DNA of 64,000 bases, taken from Clostridia bacterium (GTDB taxonomy: Bacteria; Bacillota; Clostridia; Monoglobales; Firm-18). This document shows positions 3,678 through 28,038 of the stretch, piece after piece. The DNA lies in assembly GCA_045660545.1 (NCBI GenBank), contig JAZREA010000005.1, positions 5,416-69,415 on the forward strand, read 5' to 3'. Each line of letters begins with the position of its first letter. The first letter of the stretch is position 1. The notes beneath the pieces are model-generated. The model searched no databases and was not told where the DNA came from. It saw only the letters and a program-made list of their open reading frames with translations. The position numbers were made by a program, and so were the translations under genes.

Positions 3678-4925
3678 TTACAAAAGTTCGCGGTCTATAA
3701 GACCAAGCAGATACAAAGAGCCGCAGACACAGATAACGCCGTTTGGACCCGTTAACGTCTTTGCAAGTGCTATTGCTTTATTAACGTCAGGCTCGGCGTA
3801 AACAGAGGAAAAAGAGCCTTTCGCCGCAGAAGCTAACTCCTCGGCAGTCGTTTTTCTCGGGTTGTCTGTTTCGGTTGCGACAAATGTGTCGGCAACGGTC
3901 GACAAAAGCTCTATACATTTTTGATACTCTTTGTCTTTTAACATAGCTGTTACAAGAGTGACTTTTTTATCAGGGAAGTATGTTTTAAGAGCGTCAGTAA
4001 GCTCGGTAACTCCTGATAAGTTGTGTGCGCCGTCCTGTATTATAAGCGGGTTTTCGGATAAAAGCTCGAGCCTTCCTCTAAAACGTGTTGTGCCAAGACC
4101 TTCCCTTATAGCTTCGTCGCTGACGCCGATAAGGCGGGAAGCCTCTATTGCGGACACTGCGTTATAGACCTGATGCTTGCCAAGCATATTTATATGGTAT
4201 GGCTCTTCTTTGTACAAAAAGTCTGTACCCCAAATATCCTGTTTTATGATTTTAACCGAGCTTTTATCGGGTATAACAAGGCTAACGCCCGTCTTTTCAC
4301 AAGCGCTTTTAATGACTTCGTCTGCCTCGGCAGGGTTGTTGGCGTAGGAAATAACGGAGGAGCCGCTTTTTATAATACCGCACTTTTCGAACGCTATTTT
4401 TGCAACCGTGTCGCCAAGGTATTCTGTATGGTCTAAGCTTATGCTTGTGATTATTGCAAGAACGGGTGGTGGGATGACGTTTGTGGCGTCGAACCTGCCG
4501 CCCATACCGACCTCGAGAACTACGTAGTCGCAGCCCTGGTCATAAAAATACAAAAATCCGATTGCAGTAACAAGCTCAAACTCGGTAGGCTCAATACCGC
4601 TGTCTTGCAACGCATCTTTTACTTGGCTTGTGTACTTTGCAAGGTCTTCCTTTGAAATTTCGGCATTGTTAATCTGGATGCGCTCTGTAAACGAATAGAC
4701 GTAGGGGGAGATATACTTTCCCACCTTGTAGCCGTCTTTGATTAACATATCTGAAATATACGAAGTGGTGGAGCCCTTGCCGTTTGTGCCTGCTATGTGT
4801 ATGAATTTTAGCTTTTTATGAGGATTACCGAGGCGGTTTAAAAGCGCCTCGGTAGTATCAAGACCAAGCTTTATTCCAAACTTATTTTTTGAATGGATAT
4901 ATTCTATGCTTTGTTGGTAATTCAT
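3678..4925 (-). CDS. folC: bifunctional folylpolyglutamate synthase / dihydrofolate synthase
   Basis: 415 aa; [12 protein letters not shown]-loop of Mur-ligase fold, FolC-like N-terminus; start overlaps valS stop. Confidence 0.9.
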
Positions 4926-7534: not shown

Positions 7535-9432
7535 TGGTCTTCTCCTCTTTCTACTTGGTAGTCCTTGATATTTCGATATTGCAATAATTTATATTTGTTT
7601 ATTACTTCGTTTTGTTCCTCTGTTAAAGTTTCCTCCAGCGTTCCGGGGTAGCCGTTATGGTTCCTCGAAAGCAGAGGTGCAAAGTTAGACATTTCGTCAC
7701 AAAACGCAAAGAACGGCGGAAGCTCTAAATCCATATATTTAAACATTTTAACAGCAAGATAGTTTGCTGAAATGAGCTCTTGCTCGCCCTTTAACTGAGG
7801 CTTGGTGCTTCTTAAAAATGCCTTATTGCCGATTATAAGATAGTCGGTTGAGTACATATTTAAAAGATTCTGTGCATCCTTACTTTCGCCGCCTATGTCG
7901 AGCCCTAACTTTTTGAACATAGTCTGCTCGTCGTCAAGGTAGGGAAGGTGGTCACCGAAGAACACTAAAACTGTGGGCTCATCTATGGTATTTATATAGT
8001 CATAGATTGTTTCCAGCAAGACGTCTGCCGCCTTTATTCCGCCCAGGTAGTTGTTGATTATATAATATTCGTTTTCTGCAAGCTCGGGCGTTTTGGCAAC
8101 GTATTCCTTGCCGTAGGTGAGCCTTTTTTCGTTATACGGACCGTGGTTTTGTATCGTGATTGTGAAGCTGAAGTGGCCGCCCTCTTCACCGCTTTCGATA
8201 TGCTTTTGAAAGTCGGATATTATCATATCCGAAGCCAGAGTGTCGTCGGCGTAATAACCTGTGGACAGGGGTATCTCTACGCCTTGTGCCTCTAAGTCAT
8301 CTCTGGACGTAAAGCTGTCGAAGCCAAGCCTTGGATAAACGTTTTGCCTGTTATAAAACCAGGCGTTACCCGGGTGCATGGCGCTTGTTGTAAAGCCTGC
8401 TTCCTTAAAAAGCTGCACTATGGAGTAGGCGTCCTGGGTAATAAGCGTTTTGTATGCCGTAGGCATTGTGGGGCTGATTGCCGACGTGTTACAGCCCGTT
8501 AAAAACTCAAACTCGGTGCTTGATGTGGCCCCGCCAAAGCCCGGGACGTATATTTGTCCGTAGCAGGCTTTTTTTCTGAGATTGTTCATATATGAATAAG
8601 GGTTTTCGTCGACAAATTCGATATTTCCCCAATCCTGAACATCGGTGTAAGCTTCGCACATTATGGCTATAACATTTGGGGCGTCGGACGGGATTTTATT
8701 GTCCGGATACGCGGACAGTATTTCGTCCGTATTTTCACCTGAGTAACTGTCGGGCTTGTCATAGCGCATGACAGACGTATTGTTTATAAGAGAGTATACA
8801 AGGCCTTTGCTTGAAACGATTGTAGTTTCGTGGAAAATACCAAGATCCGCCAAAAGAGCGTTGTATATTCTGGTGTTTTGATATATCAGGCTATATGCTC
8901 CTGCGCTGAGCGCGAGGGTTACGACAATTCCTATAAGCGAGGTGAGAAGCCCCGGCCTTTTGTTTTTAACCCTTTTGGCAACAAACCAAAAGGACAAGGC
9001 ACACACGACGACTACCAGTATGACGATGCCGTCAACAGTAATGTCGTAGTTTTGGATAATATTTTTAGCCTCTTTTGCAAGAGAGAAATCTGTCGGATTA
9101 AGGGGCTCATCACGAAACTTGATTTTAAAGTGGTTGATGAGCAACAACACAGAGAGAACTATGTTTGTTATAATAAATGACCATGATATTTTGCCTATTG
9201 TGAAATACAAAAACAGCAAAAGTAAAAATATGGGGATTATGTTAAACAGCATAATGGGCCCATAAAGCTGAAGAACGTTGAAGTTTTGCGCAACCATCTG
9301 GTACAAAACTGTCCAGATTGCCATGACAAAAAGCAAAATAAGGGAACGGTGCAGAGAAAAATCTCCGTTATCGTTAAACGTTTTTTTGATGTAATTGAAA
9401 ATAGATTTAAAAAAAGATTTAACCTTTTGCAT
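7531..9432 (-). CDS. LTA synthase family protein (N-terminal TM bundle + sulfatase-like domain)
   Basis: 633 aa; five N-terminal TM segments then an alkaline-phosphatase/sulfatase-like domain ([18 protein letters not shown]); stop overlaps valS start. Confidence 0.75.
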
Positions 9433-10840: not shown

Positions 10841-11878
10841 ATGAGTGAAGATTTTGTAACATTACTTGAAGAGTTTGAAAAAGAAAAAGGCATAAGCCGC
10901 GACATTCTTATCGAAGCCCTGGAGACCGCACTTGTTTCTGCTTACAAAAGAAACTACGGAAGCAACCAGGACGTAAAGGTTGAAATCGACAGACAAAACG
11001 GCAGTATGAGAGTGTTTATAAAAAAGATTGTTGTTGCAGTTGTTGAGGATGCCGACACACAGATTTCGCTTGACGAGGCAAAGGAAATCAGCCCTTCTTA
11101 TTCCGAGGGGGATGTGGTTGAAATTGCTACTGCTCCACGTACATTCGGCCGTATTGCGGCACAGACTGCAAGACAGGTTGTTACACAAAGAATCAGGGAA
11201 GCAGAAAGAGGCATGTTCTACAACCAGTTTGCCGACAAGCTAAACGACATTGTTAGCGGTACTGTTCAGAGAGTTGAAAAGAGAAGTGTTATTTTAAGAG
11301 TTGGAAGCGCTGACGCAATGCTTATGCAACAGGAACAGGTGGAGGCAGACAACTATCATCCGGGCCAGCGTCTTAAACTTTACGTTGTAGACGTACAGAG
11401 AACTACAAAGGGTCCACAGGTTATTATTTCGAGAACTCACAGCGGGCTTGTAAGAAAGCTCTTTGAACTTGAAGTTCCTGAAATTGCAACAGGTGTTGTT
11501 GAGATTAAAGGCGTTTCGAGAGAAGCCGGTTCGAGAACGAAGATTGCTGTTTTTGCCGCTGATTCCAACGTCGACCCGATTGGCGCATGCGTAGGTCCTA
11601 AGGGCGCTCGTGTTCAGGCGATTGTTGACGAGCTTATGGGAGAGAAAATAGACATCATCAAGTACAGCGAAGACCCGGCTGAGTATGTTTCGGCTGCACT
11701 TGCTCCGACAACTGTCCTAAAATGCGACGTTAACGAGGCTGAAAAGTGCTGTACCGTTACCGTTAACGCAGACCAGCTTTCGCTCGCTATCGGTAAAGAG
11801 GGACAAAACGTACGCCTTGCAGCTAAGCTTACCGGTTGGAAAATCGACATAGTAAAAGCAGAAGGCGATGATGCTTAA
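10841..11878 (+). CDS. nusA: transcription termination/antitermination factor NusA
   Basis: N-terminus MSEDFVTLLEEFEKEKGISRDILIEALETALVSAYKRNY matches the NusA N-terminal domain. S1 and KH regions follow. The ATG at 10841 is preferred over the track TTG at 10832, which sits only 2 nt from the SD. Confidence 0.95.
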   Translation: MSEDFVTLLEEFEKEKGISRDILIEALETALVSAYKRNYGSNQDVKVEIDRQNGSMRVFIKKIVVAVVEDADTQISLDEAKEISPSYSEGDVVEIATAPRTFGRIAAQTARQVVTQRIREAERGMFYNQFADKLNDIVSGTVQRVEKRSVILRVGSADAMLMQQEQVEADNYHPGQRLKLYVVDVQRTTKGPQVIISRTHSGLVRKLFELEVPEIATGVVEIKGVSREAGSRTKIAVFAADSNVDPIGACVGPKGARVQAIVDELMGEKIDIIKYSEDPAEYVSAALAPTTVLKCDVNEAEKCCTVTVNADQLSLAIGKEGQNVRLAAKLTGWKIDIVKAEGDDA

Positions 11879-12150
11879 TGAAGCACAAAAAGATTTTTGA
11901 AGACGGCAAATATGTTCCGCAGCGTATGTGTGTCGCTTGTCGGTGTGTCAGGCCAAAGGCGGAGCTTATACGGGTTGCCCGTATGGGTGAGGGCGTAAGT
12001 GTTTCTGACGGCGGCGGACGCGGAGCGTATGTTTGCAAAAACAAGGAATGTATCTTAAAGGCCCAGAAAACCGAAGCGTTAAAAAGAGGGCTTGGGACAT
12101 TCGTTTCTTCTGAAATTTATGAGGAGTGTATGAATATTGACGGAAAGTAA
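11878..12150 (+). CDS. ylxR: YlxR/RnpM family (DUF448) RNA-binding protein
   Basis: 90 aa; RMCVACRCVRPKAELIRV motif; canonical position after nusA. Confidence 0.85.
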   Translation: MKHKKIFEDGKYVPQRMCVACRCVRPKAELIRVARMGEGVSVSDGGGRGAYVCKNKECILKAQKTEALKRGLGTFVSSEIYEECMNIDGK

Positions 12151-21059: not shown

Positions 21060-21866
21060 ATGTTTATAGATTTTCACACACATATTTTCCCTGATAAAAT
21101 TGCACAGAGGGTAATAAGAATATTAAAGGGCAACGCGCAAAAGCAGGGGCACGTTGAGCAAAGGTCCTTTGCTGACGGTACTTTGGGCGGGCTTCGTGCG
21201 TCTATGGAGAGGTGCAAAATAAGCAAAAGTGTTGCGCTTCCGATTGCTACTAAGCCGACGCAGGCGGATAGCATTAATTCCTTTGCGATGGAGGTTAATT
21301 CCCCGGACGTAATTTCGTTTGGAAGTGTTCATCCTATGCAAAGCGACTGGGAAGACGTGATTGATAGGCTTTACGAAAGTGGAATTAAAGGAATAAAGCT
21401 TCATCCGCAATATCAGCAGGTGAGGGTTGACAGTCCTGAGACTATAAGGGTTTTGAAAAAAGCGGAGTCTCTTAAAATGTACACAACCTTGCATGCCGGG
21501 GTGGATATTGGCGTTCCGCCGCCTCTTATGTGCACGCCGAAGATGCTTTCTGACGTGCTCACAGAAGTAAGCGGAGAATACATTATAGCCGCTCATCTGG
21601 GCGGGTTTGATATGTGGGACGAGGTGGAAAAAGAGCTTGTCGGCAAGCCGATTTACTTTGACACCGCGGTTATAAGCTCGTTTATTGAAAAAGAGCAATA
21701 TAAAAGGATTGTGAAAAATCATGGGTCGAAAAAGGTTTTGTTCGCAAGCGACCTGCCTTGGGAGGACCCGTTGGACACGATTAGAGGACTTGATTCTCTC
21801 GGGCTTTCGACAGAGGAATACGAAGATATAGCTTATAAGAACGCTAAAAGGATTTTGGGGATTTGA
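21060..21866 (+). CDS. amidohydrolase-family (TIM-barrel metal-dependent hydrolase) protein
   Basis: 268 aa; MFIDFHTHIFP N-terminal His-x-His, later HLGG and SDLPW motifs. Confidence 0.75.
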   Translation: MFIDFHTHIFPDKIAQRVIRILKGNAQKQGHVEQRSFADGTLGGLRASMERCKISKSVALPIATKPTQADSINSFAMEVNSPDVISFGSVHPMQSDWEDVIDRLYESGIKGIKLHPQYQQVRVDSPETIRVLKKAESLKMYTTLHAGVDIGVPPPLMCTPKMLSDVLTEVSGEYIIAAHLGGFDMWDEVEKELVGKPIYFDTAVISSFIEKEQYKRIVKNHGSKKVLFASDLPWEDPLDTIRGLDSLGLSTEEYEDIAYKNAKRILGI

Positions 21867-21894
21867 ACTTGGGTTTGAATCCCCTTGTTTTTTT
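21857..21894 (+). terminator. rho-independent terminator overlapping the amidohydrolase stop codon
   Basis: GGGGATT(21857-21863)/AATCCCC(21878-21884), then TTGTTTTTTT. Confidence 0.7.
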
Positions 21895-21910
21895 GGGGAA
21901 AGTGTATTAT

Positions 21911-22270
21911 AATTGACACATACGGGATTTTATTTTTAAAATCCCTAAAGCCTTTCGGCTTTTGCGGTCTTTGACCGCTGTGTCAATTGACGGCGTCGTA
22001 AAAATGCCCTTGCAAGCAAGCATTTTTACTTCCTGGTAGAATTTGTACACATGTGTTAATTGACGGCGTCGCGAAAATCTCCTTGCAAGCAAAGATTTTC
22101 GCTTCCTGGTAAAATTTATACATATGTATCAATTGACTGTGTCGTGATTAGTGACACCTGAAATCTTTGATTTCATTGGTGGAACTTATCCATGCGACCG
22201 AAGGTAGCAGGGGAAATGCCCTTGCAAGCAAGTATTTTTACTTCCTGGTAGAATTTTTATATACGTGATT
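21911..22270 (+). repeat. phased tandem array: four AATTGAC boxes at 73-74 bp spacing, each followed by an A/T-rich hairpin; units 1-3 share the loop CCTTGCAAGCAA and a TGGTA(G/A)AAT box
   Basis: AATTGAC at 21911, 21985, 22058, 22131. Hairpins at 21924-21945, 21999-22028, 22071-22102, 22213-22238. TGGTAGAAT/TGGTAAAAT at 22034, 22107, 22246. Unit 3 carries a ~66-bp insertion. Confidence 0.85.
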
Positions 22271-22349
22271 TGAAAGCGATGATGCTACATATTCAAAGTC
22301 GGGAAGTGCGGATGAGTTTGTTTGGCTGCACATAAGATGAATGAGTTTT

Positions 22350-22372
22350 TTGTCCCAGACTTGACACGAGTA
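22350..22372 (+). repeat. junction element copy E (right end only: CTTGACACGAGTA)
   Basis: 22360-22372 is the exact reverse complement of the left end of copy B (24440-24452). Confidence 0.6.
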
Positions 22373-22424
22373 ACAATAGTTGGAAATAAAGCGTTTTAAA
22401 TTGATACAAATTGTAAGGAGATAA

Positions 22425-23186
22425 ATGGTTATGGCACTTATAGAATTAAAGTTTTTTAGTCAGACATTAGGAATGCAGACACAAGCATATGTCGTTATTC
22501 CTCAAAAATCCACGAAAGGTGAAATTGGAATTAAAGGAAAAAGCAAAGATAAAGAGTATAAATGCGTGTATTTGTTGCACGGTTTAAGCGATGATCACAG
22601 CATATGGCTTCGCAGAACATCTATTGAACGATACGCTGCTGATTATGGTGCTTGTATAGTTATGCCGTGTGGAGCAAGAAGTTTTTATACGGATATGAAG
22701 TATGGCATGAAATATTTTTCTTATATAACCGAGGAACTTCCGAGTATTGTAAGTGAATTTCTTAAAGTTTCAAATAAAAGAGAGGACACTTATATAGCGG
22801 GTCTTTCTATGGGTGGTTATGGAGCACTTAAGGCAGCTCTGAAAAAACCAGAAGTGTTTTGTGCAGCTGCGGGGCTATCGTCGGTTGCAGATATTAAGAA
22901 TGGTATGTTTAATGATACTCTTGTGCCTGTGTTTGGGGAAGATTTGAATATTCCTGATGAAGAGGATTTGTTTTTCCTTGCTGAAAAAACCAACTTAAAT
23001 CCACTTAAGCCCAGAATTTTTATGGGTGTAGGAACGGAAGATTTTTTATATGATTCAAATACCAGACTAAAAGAGCATTTTGAACAGCTTGATTATGACT
23101 TTACATATCGTGAATCAGCTGGCGTACATAGTTGGGAATTTTGGGATGAATACATAAGGTATGTGCTGGAATGGATGTTTGGATAA
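22425..23186 (+). CDS. esterase D-family alpha/beta hydrolase (putative carbohydrate/tributyrin esterase)
   Basis: 253 aa; YLLHGLSDDHSIW and the GLSMGGYGA nucleophile elbow. Confidence 0.8.
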   Translation: MVMALIELKFFSQTLGMQTQAYVVIPQKSTKGEIGIKGKSKDKEYKCVYLLHGLSDDHSIWLRRTSIERYAADYGACIVMPCGARSFYTDMKYGMKYFSYITEELPSIVSEFLKVSNKREDTYIAGLSMGGYGALKAALKKPEVFCAAAGLSSVADIKNGMFNDTLVPVFGEDLNIPDEEDLFFLAEKTNLNPLKPRIFMGVGTEDFLYDSNTRLKEHFEQLDYDFTYRESAGVHSWEFWDEYIRYVLEWMFG

Positions 23187-23213
23187 TTAAAACACAGACT
23201 CACTCCATTTGCA

Positions 23214-23406
23214 TTTTACTCGTGACAAGTTTATAAAATTCAAAACATTAGTTTGCCGATTTCAAATATTTACATATACTATCGGAGCAGGAAAATCCAG
23301 TGTTCCTGCGGGTTCTAATGAAAAATGTTCAAGAAAAAATCAGTGAAAAATTAAGGATAAAAATAGTAGGTCCTATTATTCACTGTTCTCCTGTCTTGAC
23401 ACGAAC
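23214..23406 (+). repeat. junction element copy A (~193 bp, TIR-bounded, structured)
   Basis: Left TACTCGTG-ACAAG 23217-23229, right CTTGACACGAAC 23395-23406; internal hairpin GCAGGAA(23287-23293)/TTCCTGC(23303-23309). Confidence 0.85.
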
Positions 23407-23446
23407 TTATTGAATATAATTAGCAAATATAAAAGAGGTAGAAATA

Positions 23447-24415
23447 ATGATAATAAAGTGTAATAACGATAAAATCCGTTATACGGGAAGATGGAATATC
23501 AACGAATCTTCAGCAACATCAACTGCAAATGGAAATTATTTTGAATTTATGTATTCGGGAGAATGTGCAGTAATCGGATTTGACACATCCTATGTACGAG
23601 TTCCATTTCCCCACGTTTATATAAGTGTTGATGGCGGTGCCAATGTCGAGGTTTCGCTTGATCGGTTTGTAAGGATTTCCGCAGAAGAAGGCGAGCACAA
23701 GGTTTGTGTTATTTTAAAAGGGTCAGTAGAAATTCAACACAGATGGTTTGCTCCTATTGAAGCTAAAGTTTCGCTTCTTGAAATTGAAGCCGATGAATTT
23801 TTAGACTTGCCTGAGGATACACGCCCTGTAATAGAATTTATAGGTGATTCGATAACAGAGGGGATTTCTATTGATGTAGGATATTCAAATTACGGAAATA
23901 GTAGGGATATGGTTTATTGGGATGATTCGACAGCGGGGTACGCCTGGCTTACTGCAAGGACATTAAATTTTAGACCGGTTATCATGGGATATGGATGCCT
24001 TGGCACAACAAAGGGGGGTGCAGGTGGAATTCCTCCTGTTGCAGAGTCCTATAAATATTATAGCGATGGATATGCAATGGAAAGTCAACAAGCTGATTTT
24101 ATTGTAATAAATCATGGTACTAATGACCGTAGAGCAGATAAGGAAATCTTTAAAAAAAGATATTTTGAGTTTTTGTGTGTTGTAAGAGAACGAAATCCAA
24201 AAGCAAAAATAATTTCTTTAACTCCTTTTTCGGGGTGCCTCGCAAAAGAAATAAAAGAAGTGGTTGAAAAGTACAATAAAGAAAAAGATGATACGATTTT
24301 CTATATAGATACTACAGGATGGATAGAACCAGAGCCTATTCATCCGCTTAGAATCGGACACAAAACAGTGAGTGAAAAATTATCAAAAATAATAAAAGAA
24401 CACTTACTGAAATAA
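23447..24415 (+). CDS. SGNH/GDSL hydrolase with N-terminal beta-sandwich (CE2-like carbohydrate esterase architecture)
   Basis: 322 aa; FIGDSITEG block I, INHGTNDR block III/V-like, ~130-aa N-terminal non-catalytic domain. Confidence 0.75.
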   Translation: MIIKCNNDKIRYTGRWNINESSATSTANGNYFEFMYSGECAVIGFDTSYVRVPFPHVYISVDGGANVEVSLDRFVRISAEEGEHKVCVILKGSVEIQHRWFAPIEAKVSLLEIEADEFLDLPEDTRPVIEFIGDSITEGISIDVGYSNYGNSRDMVYWDDSTAGYAWLTARTLNFRPVIMGYGCLGTTKGGAGGIPPVAESYKYYSDGYAMESQQADFIVINHGTNDRRADKEIFKKRYFEFLCVVRERNPKAKIISLTPFSGCLAKEIKEVVEKYNKEKDDTIFYIDTTGWIEPEPIHPLRIGHKTVSEKLSKIIKEHLLK

Positions 24416-24435
24416 GATAAGACAATTTCGTTGTA

Positions 24436-24630
24436 TTTTTACTCGTGTCAAGTTTATAAAATTTAAAACATTAGTTTGCCGATTTAAAATATTTACATAT
24501 ATCATCGGGAGCGAGAAAATCCAGTATTCTCGCGGGTTCTAATGGAATATTGTTTGGAAAAGAGCAGTGAAAAAATTGACTGAAAAATAGTAGGTCCTAT
24601 TATTCACTGTTCTCCTAACTTGACAAAATC
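24436..24630 (+). repeat. junction element copy B (~195 bp)
   Basis: Left TACTCGTGTCAAG 24440-24452, right CTTGACAAAATC 24619-24630; hairpin GCGAGAA(24511-24517)/TTCTCGC(24527-24533) compensated relative to copies A and C. Confidence 0.85.
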
Positions 24631-24664
24631 ATATAATAAACTATTTTTTTGTGAGGTGATAAAA

Positions 24665-25144
24665 ATGACAAGCTATCCATTTCTACCTTTATATAATAAA
24701 GATTCTAAAATATTAATTTTGGGAAGCTTTCCATCTGTAAAATCACGTGAGCAAAAGTTTTTTTATGGGCATCCGCAAAACCGCTTTTGGAAAGTTATTT
24801 CCTCTGTGTTTGAATGTAATGAGCCTAAGAACATTGAAGAAAAAAAGCACCTTTTGCTTGAAAACGGCATTGCACTTTGGGATGTTATAGCATCTTGTGA
24901 AATAATTGGAAGTGCTGACAGTACCATTAAAAATGTAAAAGTAAATGATATTTCAAAAATTTTGAAAGAAACAAATATAAATAAGATTTTTGTTAATGGT
25001 AAAACGGCAGAAAAATATTTTAAAAGGTATACAAAAAATCAAATAAATATAGATGCGTCATATTTGCCATCTACATCACCTGCGAATGCTGCCTGGACAC
25101 TAGAACGACTCGTTGATGAGTGGAAAGTTATTAAAGGCATTTGA
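24665..25144 (+). CDS. DNA-deoxyinosine (hypoxanthine) glycosylase, UDG-superfamily
   Basis: 159 aa from the ATG at 24665, 6 nt after GAGGTG. The track TTG at 24620 is the TTGACA box of the repeat. ILILGSFPSVKSREQKFFYGHPQNRFW and LPSTSPANA motifs. Confidence 0.8.
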   Translation: MTSYPFLPLYNKDSKILILGSFPSVKSREQKFFYGHPQNRFWKVISSVFECNEPKNIEEKKHLLLENGIALWDVIASCEIIGSADSTIKNVKVNDISKILKETNINKIFVNGKTAEKYFKRYTKNQINIDASYLPSTSPANAAWTLERLVDEWKVIKGI

Positions 25145-25195
25145 AAGGAATTGTTTTGAAGAAACAATTTAGCTATGGTGCAAATCGAAATAATT

Positions 25196-25324
25196 TGGCT
25201 TTGAACGTTAGTTTGAAATTCAGCTTAAAAGATTGGCATCTAAATTATACAGTCTTTATAAAGTTTGAAATGTTAGGGACAAAATTTTTGTGCCGAATAA
25301 TAGTGAAAAAATCTTGACAAAATT
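25196..25324 (+). repeat. junction element copy D (diverged and internally deleted)
   Basis: AACGTTAGTTTGAAATT resembles AACATTAGTTTGCCGATTT, and AGTGAAAAAATCTTGACAAAAT matches the 3' part and right end of copies B and C. Confidence 0.5.
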
Positions 25325-25368
25325 TATAAAATCGTGTATTCTATAACGATTTAGATTCAAATCTAAAT
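25314..25368 (+). promoter_or_regulatory. promoter plus ATTTAGA-N6-TCTAAAT palindrome in front of the NTase operon
   Basis: -35 TTGACA 25314-25319, 17-nt spacer, -10 TATTCT 25337-25342. Palindrome ATTTAGATTCAAATCTAAAT at 25349-25368 has the same half-sites and spacing as the two sdpR operators. Confidence 0.6.
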
Positions 25369-25397
25369 GGTAGGTATGGGAACGAAAGGAGAAAAAT

Positions 25398-26051
25398 ATG
25401 TATCACTATTTAGATGACAAAGAGTTTGTTAGTAAGATGAGAACTTTGTGCGGAGAGATTATGCAGGATTTATGTCATATTTTGAAAGAAGAGTATGATA
25501 TAGGTTCTACATTTTATTTGGTCGGTAGCGGTGCACGAAATCTTATTATGCAAAACAATAATGAACCTGTGGACTTAGATTACAATTTAGAAATTATCAG
25601 GTGTGAAGATTTTGAAGATCGTCGTTACATAAAAGAATGTGTGCGTAAGGCATTTAATAAGGCTTTAAATTTGAATGATTTAAATGATTGTGAGGACTCG
25701 ACATCTTCGTTGACATCAAAACCAATATATTTTACAGATGGAAATGATACAGAATTCAAAATTGATGTGTGCATAACTGTAAGGGATGAGGATGATATTT
25801 ATTACAGATTGATTCATAATAAAACAGGTTTTGTTTTTTATGATGAATATGCTTGGAATATTGCACCTAATTCAAAAAGAATAAATGAAAAGGTTGATTA
25901 TATTAAAAAATGCGGTAAATGGATATTGTTAAGGCAGCAGTATGAAAAAATCAAAAATATGTATTTGACTCGCAACGATTATAATCACCCATCATTTATT
26001 TGTTATGTGGAAGCAGTAAATAATGTATATGACTCAAGAAAAAGCTGGTAG
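25398..26051 (+). CDS. minimal Pol-beta-superfamily nucleotidyltransferase, SMODS/CD-NTase-like
   Basis: 217 aa; G43-S44...D59-L-D61 and D123 (KIDVCI) triad. The C-terminal WNIAPNS...GKWILLRQQY...PSFICYVEAV resembles the helical lobe of SMODS/OAS-like enzymes. Confidence 0.55.
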   Translation: MYHYLDDKEFVSKMRTLCGEIMQDLCHILKEEYDIGSTFYLVGSGARNLIMQNNNEPVDLDYNLEIIRCEDFEDRRYIKECVRKAFNKALNLNDLNDCEDSTSSLTSKPIYFTDGNDTEFKIDVCITVRDEDDIYYRLIHNKTGFVFYDEYAWNIAPNSKRINEKVDYIKKCGKWILLRQQYEKIKNMYLTRNDYNHPSFICYVEAVNNVYDSRKSW

Positions 26052-26064
26052 GAGGAAATAAAAT

Positions 26065-26715
26065 ATGTACTGTAAATATTGTGGAAGAATCATAGATGAT
26101 GATTCAAAATACTGTGTGAATTGCGGTAATAATATGAATAATGATAATTCTGGAACAGTGTCTGAGGATGCACCGAGTAGGGGTTTTGCTATTTTGGGAT
26201 TTTTTGTACCAATAATCGGACTTATACTTTATTTGATTTATGAACGCAAACAACCTAAAAGAGCAAAATCAGCTGGAAAAGGTGCTTTGGTTGGTTTTAT
26301 AACTAAAATAGTTATATATATAGTAATTGTAATCCTTTATGTAATTTTTGCATCTTCGATGATAAAAAGTACAATGGGCAATATTGATATTAACACTTAT
26401 AATATTGACTCTATGGAAGAAACAGCAGATTTTGATGTTGAGTTTGGCGAGTTTAAGGTGACGAACAATGGATATACATATGATACATCTTTGGAAGTAA
26501 CTGTCACAAATACAAGCGACAAACAAAAATCATTTTATATAACAGTTGAGGCAGTTGACGAGGATGGAACAAGACTTGATACTGATATGATAATGGCTGA
26601 TCGTTTGAATTCGAATCAAAAAGTTAAATTAGAAGCTTTTAAATATGTGCCACAAGAAAAGATTGAACAATACAAATCTGCTACATTTAAAGTGTTAGAA
26701 GTGCAAAAATACTAA
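26065..26715 (+). CDS. Zn-ribbon / two-TM membrane protein with C-terminal beta-rich domain
   Basis: 216 aa; CKYCGRIIDDDSKYCVNCG zinc ribbon, two TM helices separated by a Lys/Arg-rich loop, DUF4352-like beta domain; 13 bp downstream of the NTase gene. Confidence 0.6.
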   Translation: MYCKYCGRIIDDDSKYCVNCGNNMNNDNSGTVSEDAPSRGFAILGFFVPIIGLILYLIYERKQPKRAKSAGKGALVGFITKIVIYIVIVILYVIFASSMIKSTMGNIDINTYNIDSMEETADFDVEFGEFKVTNNGYTYDTSLEVTVTNTSDKQKSFYITVEAVDEDGTRLDTDMIMADRLNSNQKVKLEAFKYVPQEKIEQYKSATFKVLEVQKY

Positions 26716-26737
26716 CTATTTCATTGTGGAATATGGT

Positions 26738-26921
26738 TTGTGTCAAGTCCATACAATTTAAAACATTAGTTTGCCGATGTTGATATTTACATATACTATC
26801 GGGCAGGAAAATCTAATATTCCTGCGGATTCTAAGGAAAAGTGCAAAAGGAAAATTCAGTGAAAAAATCAGGAAAGGTTAGTAGGTCATATTATTGGCTG
26901 TTCTCCTAACTTGACAAAATC
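26738..26921 (+). repeat. junction element copy C (~184 bp)
   Basis: Left GTGTCAAG 26740-26747, right CTTGACAAAATC 26910-26921; hairpin GCAGGAA(26803-26809)/TTCCTGC(26819-26825). Confidence 0.85.
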
Positions 26922-26954
26922 TTATAAGTGTTTTGTAGTAACTTAAAAAAACGG

Positions 26955-27683
26955 ATGGAATTTATGAAAAGGAAAAGCGGTTTTATAAAAGGAATAATAG
27001 ACGGAATGCCGATTTGTCTTGGGTACTTATCGGTGGCGTTTGCGTTTGGAATATTTGCTACTGAGAGCGGTCTTAGCGTTTGGGAAACGTTGTTTATATC
27101 AATGACCAACGTAACGTCGGCAGGTCAGCTTGCGGCAGTCCCGATAATTACCGGCGGAGGGTCTTTAGCTGAACTTGCGCTATGTCAGATTATAATAAAC
27201 CTGAGGTATGCGCTTATGTCGACTTCGTTGTCGCAGAAGATGGACAAGTCTATAAGACTGATTGACAGGTTTGTAATTGCGTTTGTAAATACCGACGAGG
27301 TGTTTGCGGTTGCGTCGGGAAACAGCCATAATGTAAAAAGAAACTATATGTACGGGCTGATACTTACGCCGTATCTGGGTTGGAGTGTCGGCACGCTTTT
27401 GGGTTCTCTTGCGGGGAATGTTCTTCCGTCGTCAGTGGTGTCGGCGCTGGGTATTGCGATATACGGAATGTTTGTGGCTATTGTTGTACCCGAAATGAGA
27501 GCGAACACAAAGACGGCTTTGGCGGTTGCTTTATCAATTGTGCTAAGCTGTGCCTTTGAATTTCTGCCGTTTTTAAACAAAGTACCTGATGGGTTTACGG
27601 TGATAATATGTGCAGCGGCGGCAAGTCTTTTGTTCGCCTTTGTCTTCCCTATCGAAGTAAAGGAGGAATGTGAAAATGAATAA
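26955..27683 (+). CDS. azlC: AzlC-family branched-chain amino acid export permease
   Basis: AzlC-like TM pattern. ATG at 26955 or 26964 is preferred over the track GTG at 26928. Overlaps the azlD start. Confidence 0.8.
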   Translation: MEFMKRKSGFIKGIIDGMPICLGYLSVAFAFGIFATESGLSVWETLFISMTNVTSAGQLAAVPIITGGGSLAELALCQIIINLRYALMSTSLSQKMDKSIRLIDRFVIAFVNTDEVFAVASGNSHNVKRNYMYGLILTPYLGWSVGTLLGSLAGNVLPSSVVSALGIAIYGMFVAIVVPEMRANTKTALAVALSIVLSCAFEFLPFLNKVPDGFTVIICAAAASLLFAFVFPIEVKEECENE

Positions 27684-27993
27684 TACTCCGTTCTTTCTTT
27701 ACCTTTTGGTTATGGCGGGGATAACATATCTTATAAGAATGGTTCCGCTTGTGCTTATTAAGAAAAAAATAACAAACAGGGTAATACTGTCGTTTTTACA
27801 TTACATACCGTTTACGGTTCTTGCAGTGATGACGGTGCCTGCGATTTTTAGCTCGACGGCTTCTGTTTGGTCTGCAACATGCGGGTTTGTAGTTGCGATT
27901 GCGCTTGCACTTGGCAAGAAAAGTCTGTTGACGGTTGCGGCGTTTTCATCCTTGACGGTCTTTGTGGCAGAGTGGATGATAGGCCTTTTATAA
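27670..27993 (+). CDS. azlD: AzlD-family small membrane protein
   Basis: 107 aa, 3-4 TM segments, overlaps the azlC stop; alternative ATG at 27676. Confidence 0.8.
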   Translation: MKMNNTPFFLYLLVMAGITYLIRMVPLVLIKKKITNRVILSFLHYIPFTVLAVMTVPAIFSSTASVWSATCGFVVAIALALGKKSLLTVAAFSSLTVFVAEWMIGLL

Positions 27994-28038
27994 ATGATTT
28001 TAATGTTACATAATTTTTGGTAAATGGAGGTGGGGAAA

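Follow-up and report, generated by a model that had tools for sequence, protein, structure and literature searches.

We analyzed a 64,000-nucleotide (nt) window from the genome assembly Clostridia bacterium GCA_045660545.1 (contig JAZREA010000005.1, positions 5,416-69,415, forward strand), in which genes of unrelated function are separated by copies of a noncoding element of about 190 nt. Gene cassettes lie head to tail here and in related genomes, in AT-rich islands inserted into a conserved gene order. We interpret the element as the longer of two forms of a joint that connects mobile gene cassettes in a nonintegron system, a reading to which we assign a probability of roughly 0.55. The best-supported boundary of cassette exchange is a short core sequence, S (CCTGA|CTTGACAC(G/A)A...), and the remainder of the element, here called the body, is best described as an optional module at the 3' end of a cassette. 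Junctions that contain S without the body are termed short, and those with the body are termed long. A sequence-only reading of the window had left three hypotheses side by side: junctions of a nonintegron cassette system, a locally amplified MITE (miniature inverted-repeat transposable element), or a family of invertible promoter segments. The first of these fits best, and the description of the island as cassette-array-like is much strengthened by the finding of arrays in many genomes, by their low GC content, by their insertion into synteny, and by the recurrence of an identical cassette in several contexts. Positions are given in window coordinates, and names such as L003 or L153 denote loci outside the window.

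Movement of cassettes between genomes

We scanned one genome per species for the 18-mer AAACATTAGTTTGCCGAT of the element. The scan returned 90 stretches with about 80 true copies, nearly all of them in metagenome-assembled Clostridia from animal guts (labeled Congzhengia, Ructibacterium, Aphodoplasma, Oscillospiraceae, or "Clostridia bacterium"), with one to four exact copies per genome. The outside loci were taken as 8-kb stretches, to which we added Pfam-annotated contexts of approximately 12 to 21 kb and shorter contigs carrying the esterase gene discussed below. A profile search of the 8-kb loci gave 162 matches, and the element thus amounts to about 160 copies in about 85 genomes of uncultured gut Clostridia. 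Within each locus the matches lie on a single strand throughout, and many loci hold two to four copies spaced 0.6 to 4.7 kb apart. The upstream open reading frame (ORF) is codirectional with the element in 75 of 81 copies and the downstream ORF in 69 of 81, while both neighbors run opposite in none; S itself occurs 117 times on the element strand of the loci and twice on the other strand.

Searches beyond these genomes were negative. The element was not found in plasmid and phage collections, and in IMG/VR the 18-mer had no match, the seven matches to the S motif being an unrelated GC-rich palindrome. A metagenome scan with the amidohydrolase encoded next to the island recovered relatives of at most 58% identity, without synteny and without the element. 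Rfam gave no credible match at an E value of ≤10 for window positions 21500-27500 (five hits far below threshold, none over an element copy) and nothing at the gathering score in 13 related loci (112 kb). No protein family is conserved in the neighborhood, as the commonest occurs in 8 of about 85 loci, and our literature searches returned no description of a comparable system.

The inserted nature of the island is evident from three relatives of the window, L153, L154, and L155, whose amidohydrolases are 61 to 70% identical to that of the window. They have the common gene order pnp-ppa-amidohydrolase-whiA-dnaE, with a terminator-like hairpin after the amidohydrolase gene. In L153 and L155, whiA directly follows the amidohydrolase gene, and in L154 one extra minus-strand gene lies between them. 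Since the two genes are adjacent or nearly so in the relatives, the window segment from 21.9 to 28.0 kb, azlCD included, is an insertion between the terminator and the whiA ribosome-binding site. The sequence-only reading had recognized a real island and ended it too early, before azlCD. It had also judged the island by eye to be AT-richer than its flanks, and this holds, with a GC content of 0.30 to 0.37 versus about 0.43 around it. The same is true of the outside arrays: GC content between junctions is below that outside in 21 of 21 loci (about 0.32 versus 0.41; mean difference of -8 points; Wilcoxon P = 6e-5).

The first cassette of the window, which encodes an esterase, provides evidence for recent movement. 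For the amidohydrolase, a core neighbor, the best nonself match is 70% identical and the 90% cluster has two members; in the same protein database, the esterase has matches at 93, 92, and 92% and a cluster of 50. One identical esterase protein occurs in at least five gene contexts, and the DNA of its cassette, comprising leader, gene, and 3' tail, shows 0 to 2 differences per 50 nt among six contigs. On the 5' side the similarity breaks exactly at CTTGACACGAGTAAC, at S (CTTGACAC), before which stand context-specific variants of a T-run and GTCC(C)TGA or a body. Upstream of this identical cassette, short junctions provide at least four different contexts, and two of the 5' junctions were recovered in independent assemblies. 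Only about 20 to 25 nt are common there, so the 5' junctions cannot be products of homologous exchange or of assembly. The 3' breaks fall inside the body, at approximately positions 55, 72, 115, and 168, and a rare body variant, AAAAGATTAG, travels with the esterase.

Other cassettes behave similarly. Further species pairs have cassettes in common at 96 to 99.9% identity, with breaks at S, and one doc-type toxin gene is found in four species with a different gene after it in each. Of the recurrent gene families upstream of a junction, 9 of 9 agree with its form, short or long; of the families downstream, 4 of 8 occur with both forms. Pfam assigns the 87 genes located after S to 70 families. 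Cassettes of the AT-rich islands have thus moved in recent times among many gut Clostridia, apparently through a nonintegron cassette system.

Junction anatomy and folding of the element

Each cassette begins with S and continues with a leader, a ribosome-binding site, one or a few genes, a stop codon, a T-run, and optionally the body of about 175 nt. In a short junction, the upstream stop codon is followed by the T-run, two or three bases, and CCTGACTTGACAC(G/A)AG. A long junction is the short form with the body placed between the T-run and CCTGA. We counted approximately 45 short and 68 long junctions, and the median cassette length is 1.5 kb. The first 12 to 14 nt of the body are an inverted copy of S (ACTCGTGTCAAG), and in 52 aligned copies the element ends in ACTCGTGTCAAG and CTTGACAC(G/A)AGT. 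Body variants include some without the left arm, some that end near position 70 right after TTTACATATA, and some with inserted hairpin modules; the body has no conserved small ORF. The earlier view that one element occupies every junction is therefore replaced by one in which S and its leader are universal and the body is optional.

The leader consists of one to four phased units of about 10 nt of the GTCGAAT type, the last of which merges into GAAAGGAG and the start codon. The distance from S to ATG is only 38 to 47 nt in compact cases, and the unit number varies, which precludes a role of the TTGACA within S as -35 box for the downstream gene. TTGACA had been placed 40 to 70 nt before the start codons; that position is correct, and as a promoter the box is not dependable, given the 38 to 47 nt in many relatives. 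We rejected it as a -35 box, since it stands too close to the ribosome-binding site and the 10-nt repeats vary in number. SigD, SigH, and sigma-54 readings of GCCGAT, GAAT, and TTGC were likewise discarded, as their spacing, checked by eye, is wrong. Tandem boxes of the TGTCGAA type with a 10-nt period, in one to four copies immediately ahead of the ribosome-binding site, occur in most of 116 leaders (e.g., L072 at 3691 and L083 at 3793) and, in a weak form, at 23407-23446 of the window. TGTCGAA is the core of the Spo0A box (0A box) (PMC3485338), and judged by sequence these units suggest that cassette expression may be under stationary-phase control.

We examined folding over 52 aligned copies for the helices and arms and over 115 copies for the hairpin. 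A compensated hairpin, first noticed as GCAGGAA/TTCCTGC in copies A and C and GCGAGAA/TTCTCGC in copy B of the window, holds across the full set, where two fully compensated haplotypes are found, in 68 and 13 copies. Its cells comprise 749 Watson-Crick, 29 G.U, and 8 A.C pairings, and the preponderance of G.U over A.C indicates that selection for the structure acts on the gene-sense strand, in RNA or in single-stranded DNA. RNAalifold predicted this hairpin and one weak long-range helix (GGG.UUCUA with UAG.UAGGUCC) that has a single compensated cell. The other helices of a proposed multihelix junction fared worse. No covariation was seen in CATTAG/CTAATG or in CAGTGAA/TTCACTG, and both contain many unpaired cells; in the former, the second pair is unpaired in 34 of 52 copies. 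CCGAT/ATCGG is conserved, with four U.G cells. Among the helices proposed, the hairpin alone is thus supported. As a selected helix, the pairing of the two arms is weak (11.94 versus 11.56 complementary positions of 16; P = 0.013), and the arm haplotypes are not tightly coupled.

The island in the window and further repeat modules

Using an nhmmer model built from outside copies, we found three full copies of the element, A, B, and C, on the same strand, as the sequence-only reading had described them (E values of 1e-52 to 1e-56; pairwise identity of 74 to 83%). The 18-mer AAACATTAGTTTGCCGAT occurs three times, exclusively inside the island, versus 0.1 expected, and a conserved 28-mer likewise occurs three times versus ≤0.1; S has four occurrences in the window, all within the island. 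The claimed inversion of the ends is exact over 13 nt, as TACTCGTGTCAAG (24440-24452), the left end of copy B, is the reverse complement of CTTGACACGAGTA (22360-22372), a right end in the first junction of the island.

All features of the inserted segment lie on the plus strand. Its left edge is an intrinsic terminator after the amidohydrolase gene (21857-21894), found by a terminator scan. The array head follows (21900-22343), with small hairpins, promoter-like TATAAT/TTGACA, and a 73-nt unit that includes the palindrome GTGTCAATTGAC and is present in three tandem copies. Promoter candidates at the array head are TTGACA-18-TAAAAT at 21913-21942, from a scan, and TTGTTT-17-TATAAT at 21885-21913, by eye; from these predicted sites at about 21885-21942, expression probably reads through into the cassettes. 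The first junction (22346-22372) consists of a T-run, GTCCCAGA, and the core S CTTGACACGAGTA, and forms the 5' boundary of cassette 1. It had been taken for the right end of an element copy, which is accurate as to the end; rather than an element remnant, it is one of the approximately 45 short junctions. Cassette 1 carries the esterase gene (PF00756; 22431-23186), whose start codon at 22431 was chosen from homologues.

Element copy A (23213-23407) has the left arm TACTCGTGACAAG, the hairpin at 23287-23309, and the right arm and core S CTTGACACGAAC at 23395-23406. It is followed by cassette 2, with a gene assigned by Pfam to the GDSL/SGNH hydrolases (23447-24415), and then by copy B (24437-24630), with the hairpin at 24511-24533 and the core S CTTGACAAAATC at 24619-24630. 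Cassette 3 encodes a glycosylase placed by Pfam in the UDG superfamily (24665-25144), homologues of which are also preceded by the element in L061. The next junction, D (25145-25397), lacks the element body and contains a leader module, GCATCTAAAT, at about 25225-25262 and an S-type core, CTTGACAAAAT, at 25313-25323. It had been regarded as a decayed copy, a view we abandon since the element model is silent on 25145-25400 even at an E value of ≤100, leaving only the S-type core and a different leader module. Two genes follow (25398-26715), which encode a 217-amino-acid protein and a 216-amino-acid zinc-ribbon membrane protein, and then copy C (26734-26921), with the hairpin at 26803-26825 and the core S CTTGACAAAATC at 26912-26923. 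The last unit of the inserted segment is azlC-azlD (26964-27993), with S before it and the whiA ribosome-binding site directly after it; a truncated body also lies upstream of azlCD in L073. The Pfam families of the units, Esterase, GDSL/SGNH, UDG, and zinc ribbon, are unrelated, as had been claimed, and the 217-amino-acid protein, earlier called an NTase, has no Pfam hit. A homologue of this protein is followed by the element in L044.

Several observations accompany this arrangement. The relatives L153, L154, and L155 lack azlCD between the amidohydrolase gene and whiA (compared with window positions 26964-28023), and in the window whiA lies 30 nt after azlD, the promoter region that it has in these relatives having been lost. 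The right arms of the element are good minus-strand promoter-like sites, (T/G)TGTCA-16-AATAAT (23375-23402, 24599-24626, and 26890-26917). Transcripts from these predicted sites would run antisense into the body and into the gene upstream of it. In L157, at approximately 9330-9410, an array comprising the esterase, a SNIPE/T5orf172 nuclease, and a body starts about 450 nt downstream of a tRNA-like sequence recognized by eye.

The array head represents a second recurrent noncoding module, made up of TATAAT and TGACACATAC, small hairpins, and units with the palindrome GTGTCAATTGAC and the hairpin GTAAAAATGC..GCATTTTTAC. It is found again in L008 (5277-5412, before a murQ-like gene) and L066 (1286-1347), and inside the element bodies of L009, L035, L051, and L065, directly after TTTACATATA. 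Leaders may contain the module GGTTTGCATCTAAACC...TCGCAAT, a small hairpin with the loop GCAUCU that is without a match in Rfam and is situated after S and before the TGTCGAA boxes; it is present at 25225-25262 of the window and in at least 25 leaders of the loci (e.g., L021 at 7195, L090 at 1029, and L073 at 3621). The module GCCTTCCCCTTGAGGGGAAGGTGGGTTGC..GCAACTCGGATGAGGTG, two adjacent GC-rich hairpins, is repeated in the leaders of L001, L031, L042, L045, and L083. Bodies may carry an insert of about 65 nt after TAGTAGGTCC, with two hairpins and three flanking AGGTYCT repeats (L024, L025, L028, L033, L060, L062, L164, and others), and the second stem of this insert is either CCCAACA/TGTTGGG or GAAATAT/ATATTTC, fully different in sequence yet complementary. 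On the 3' side of the esterase in L161 and L165, a perfect 16-bp hairpin, TTATTTACACTCCTGA / TCAGGAGTGTAAATAA, holds the core S (CTTGACACGAA) in its loop. Finally, arrays of variable short hairpins with constant 7- to 9-mer spacers (CGATATG, ATGAATTG, or GCTAAATT) extend for up to 1.3 kb without an ORF (L159 at 10900-12040, L066 at 4608-4700, L006 at 2800-2900, and L009 at 1623-1720).

Competing explanations and comparison with known systems

If the element is a joint between mobile cassettes, recombination at S would excise and insert them, and the body, which adds strand-specific structure and 190 nt of shared sequence, would serve as an extended recognition or homology module. The cassettes would be transcribed from an upstream promoter, and the catalyst would be a trans-acting enzyme whose gene lies at another place in the genome. 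A dedicated enzyme at S is suggested by the almost complete lack of divergence in one cassette among several contexts that have only about 20 nt in common. The strand-specific hairpin, the tetranucleotides CTTG, CTCG, and GTTC at the arms, and the pattern of one fixed and one variable end point speculatively to chemistry on single-stranded DNA, which might resemble that of HUH/IS91-type enzymes or of attC recombination. We propose tentatively, at well under even odds, that this is a hitherto undescribed system for cassette capture and shuffling in gut Clostridia. It would have a 5' core site of its own (CCTGA|CTTGACAC), a structured 3' module that is optional, and an enzyme dedicated to it that acts in trans on one DNA strand, and it would functionally be a Gram-positive counterpart of the integron with different chemistry.

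Several points weigh against a mobile cassette system. The outside data are metagenome-assembled genomes throughout, and they include no circular cassette, no pair of empty and filled sites from the same strain, and no excision read. Motif searches of the 8-kb loci and Pfam annotation of the contexts of up to about 20 kb revealed no recombinase or transposase. In the window, this check consisted of motif patterns and of Pfam on 10 ORFs near the island. Across about 90 loci and the window, only chance matches came up with the motif patterns used for IS110, HUH enzymes, and recombinases of the tyrosine and serine types. The variable 3' breaks in the body are as expected of ordinary homologous recombination between similar repeats, and assembly chimeras at a 190-nt repeat would give the same breaks, so that a dedicated site is unproven. 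Some of the genes preceded by S also look like housekeeping or metabolic genes (FBPase and glutamine synthetase).

The body and the S-leader could instead be purely regulatory or RNA modules that hitchhike with horizontally moving genes, with shuffling as a by-product of homologous recombination. They might act as an internal promoter with a 5' stabilizing hairpin, as a processing or antitermination signal, or as a Spo0A-controlled leader. Selection of the hairpin on the sense strand suits this explanation, as do TTGCCG-16/18-TATACT-like sites just upstream of the hairpin, truncated bodies ending at TTTACATATA that adjoin a ribosome-binding site and gene (L003 and L166), the tandem TGTCGAA boxes with their Spo0A box core (PMC3485338), and the spread of 3' breakpoints through the body, which homology-driven exchange predicts. 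However, the putative -10 box is not conserved (TATACT, TATATC, or TAGAAA, and deleted in the short variant), there is no Rfam family match, and the left 115 nt are conserved across species at nearly every base, far beyond the needs of a promoter. Short junctions share about 20 to 25 nt, yet the identical cassette occurs in at least four such contexts, which is hard to explain by RecA-type exchange alone. On balance we consider a purely regulatory role rather unlikely, while giving it more weight than either of the two explanations that follow.

A second alternative is that the body is a nonautonomous transposable element, a MITE perhaps of the IS91 or IS200/IS605 type, that inserts beside the CTTG of S, with cassette mobility being a separate matter. 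The inverted ends of 12 to 13 nt and the size of about 180 nt speak for this reading, and the same downstream gene occurs with or without the body. Insertion of this kind would also agree with the strict orientation, with the right end abutting CTTG, with the nesting of other modules inside bodies, and with left-end tetranucleotides (CTCG, CTTG, or GTTC) like those at IS91-family ends and targets (PMC13181058). Direct target duplications were also absent, in line with such insertion, from the junctions that we read, without a systematic scan of the flanks. But the supposed right inverted repeat belongs to the target, as it is present in every short junction, in about 45 cases without the body; no copy sits at any other kind of site; and genetic linkage ties the left part of the body to the gene upstream, as with AAAAGATTAG and the esterase. 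The loci and contexts examined contain no autonomous relative or HUH transposase, and a genome has only one to four exact copies of the 18-mer. A locally amplified MITE, as the sequence-only reading had it, fits poorly with a strict orientation, a constant site, the absence of target duplications from the junctions read, and a right terminal repeat found in junctions that lack the body, and we judge transposition of the body to be doubtful. Least credible, and rejected here as very improbable, is a promoter segment flipped by a distant invertase for phase variation of the downstream gene. Inverted repeats of 13 nt around about 165 nt with promoter-like hexamers on both strands are what such a segment would show, but the inner segment is inverted relative to flanking genes or neighboring copies in none of about 160 assembled copies. 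The loci and contexts examined have no invertase nearby, the arms covary weakly, and short junctions retain one arm only.

Integrons are the paradigm of modular gene capture, and to our knowledge they are essentially unreported in Clostridia and Firmicutes. The arrays described here resemble integron arrays and clusters of attC sites without an integrase (CALINs) in their head-to-tail, codirectional cassettes of unrelated function, which are mostly single-gene and apparently promoterless, and in a repeat attached to the 3' end of the cassette gene, as judged by the agreement of junction form with upstream family in 9 of 9 cases. As in CALINs, there is no adjacent recombinase and cassettes are common to several species, and like attC the element has inverted ends and the potential for a single-strand hairpin. 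They differ from integrons in having no IntI, with no tyrosine-recombinase motif in the approximately 90 loci or the window and no PF00589 in seven contexts (about 12 to 21 kb) or in the shorter contigs. The arms are ACTCGTGTCAAG/CTTGACACGAGT rather than RYYYAAC/GTTRRRY (R''/R'), and it is sequence, not structure, that is conserved across species. In addition, the universal site here is at the 5' end of the cassette with a conserved leader, whereas the 3' element is optional.

Elements of the IS91/ISCR type insert in a specific orientation beside CTTG/GTTC without target duplication (PMC13181058). Their ends are unlike, with subterminal palindromes, and a mini-element of about 170 bp is enough for IS91 to transpose. 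Adjacent genes are mobilized because only one of the ends is fixed while the other varies, and single-stranded circles are intermediates (PMC13181058). Similarly, the right end of the body abuts CTTGA(C/T)A in 117 of 117 S sites, although a match of only 4 nt is weak evidence, and the resemblance consists of 4-nt motifs and geometry. Unlike IS91/ISCR, the 8- to 20-kb contexts show no HUH transposase, and the regular single-gene arrays with a shared leader differ from the patterns described for those elements. Near-identical noncoding stretches upstream of unrelated genes across species also recall putative mobile promoters (PMC3575422, promoter reuse). The inverted ends and promoter-like hexamers are shared with promoter-carrying MITEs. 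Correia elements are an example of MITEs that carry promoters. The present element differs from mobile promoters and such MITEs in that it is strictly codirectional at one specific junction, shows linkage to the gene upstream, forms arrays inside AT-rich islands, and lacks a conserved putative -10 box.

Our analysis suggests that abundant uncultured Clostridia of animal guts follow the logic of integrons with different sites. If an enzyme is found, the system would be a new route by which genes flow within gut microbiomes, and possibly a tool for site-directed insertion of cassettes. Even with a purely regulatory role, the modules constitute a large and uncatalogued family of noncoding sequences, conserved and modular, that includes several further repeat modules.

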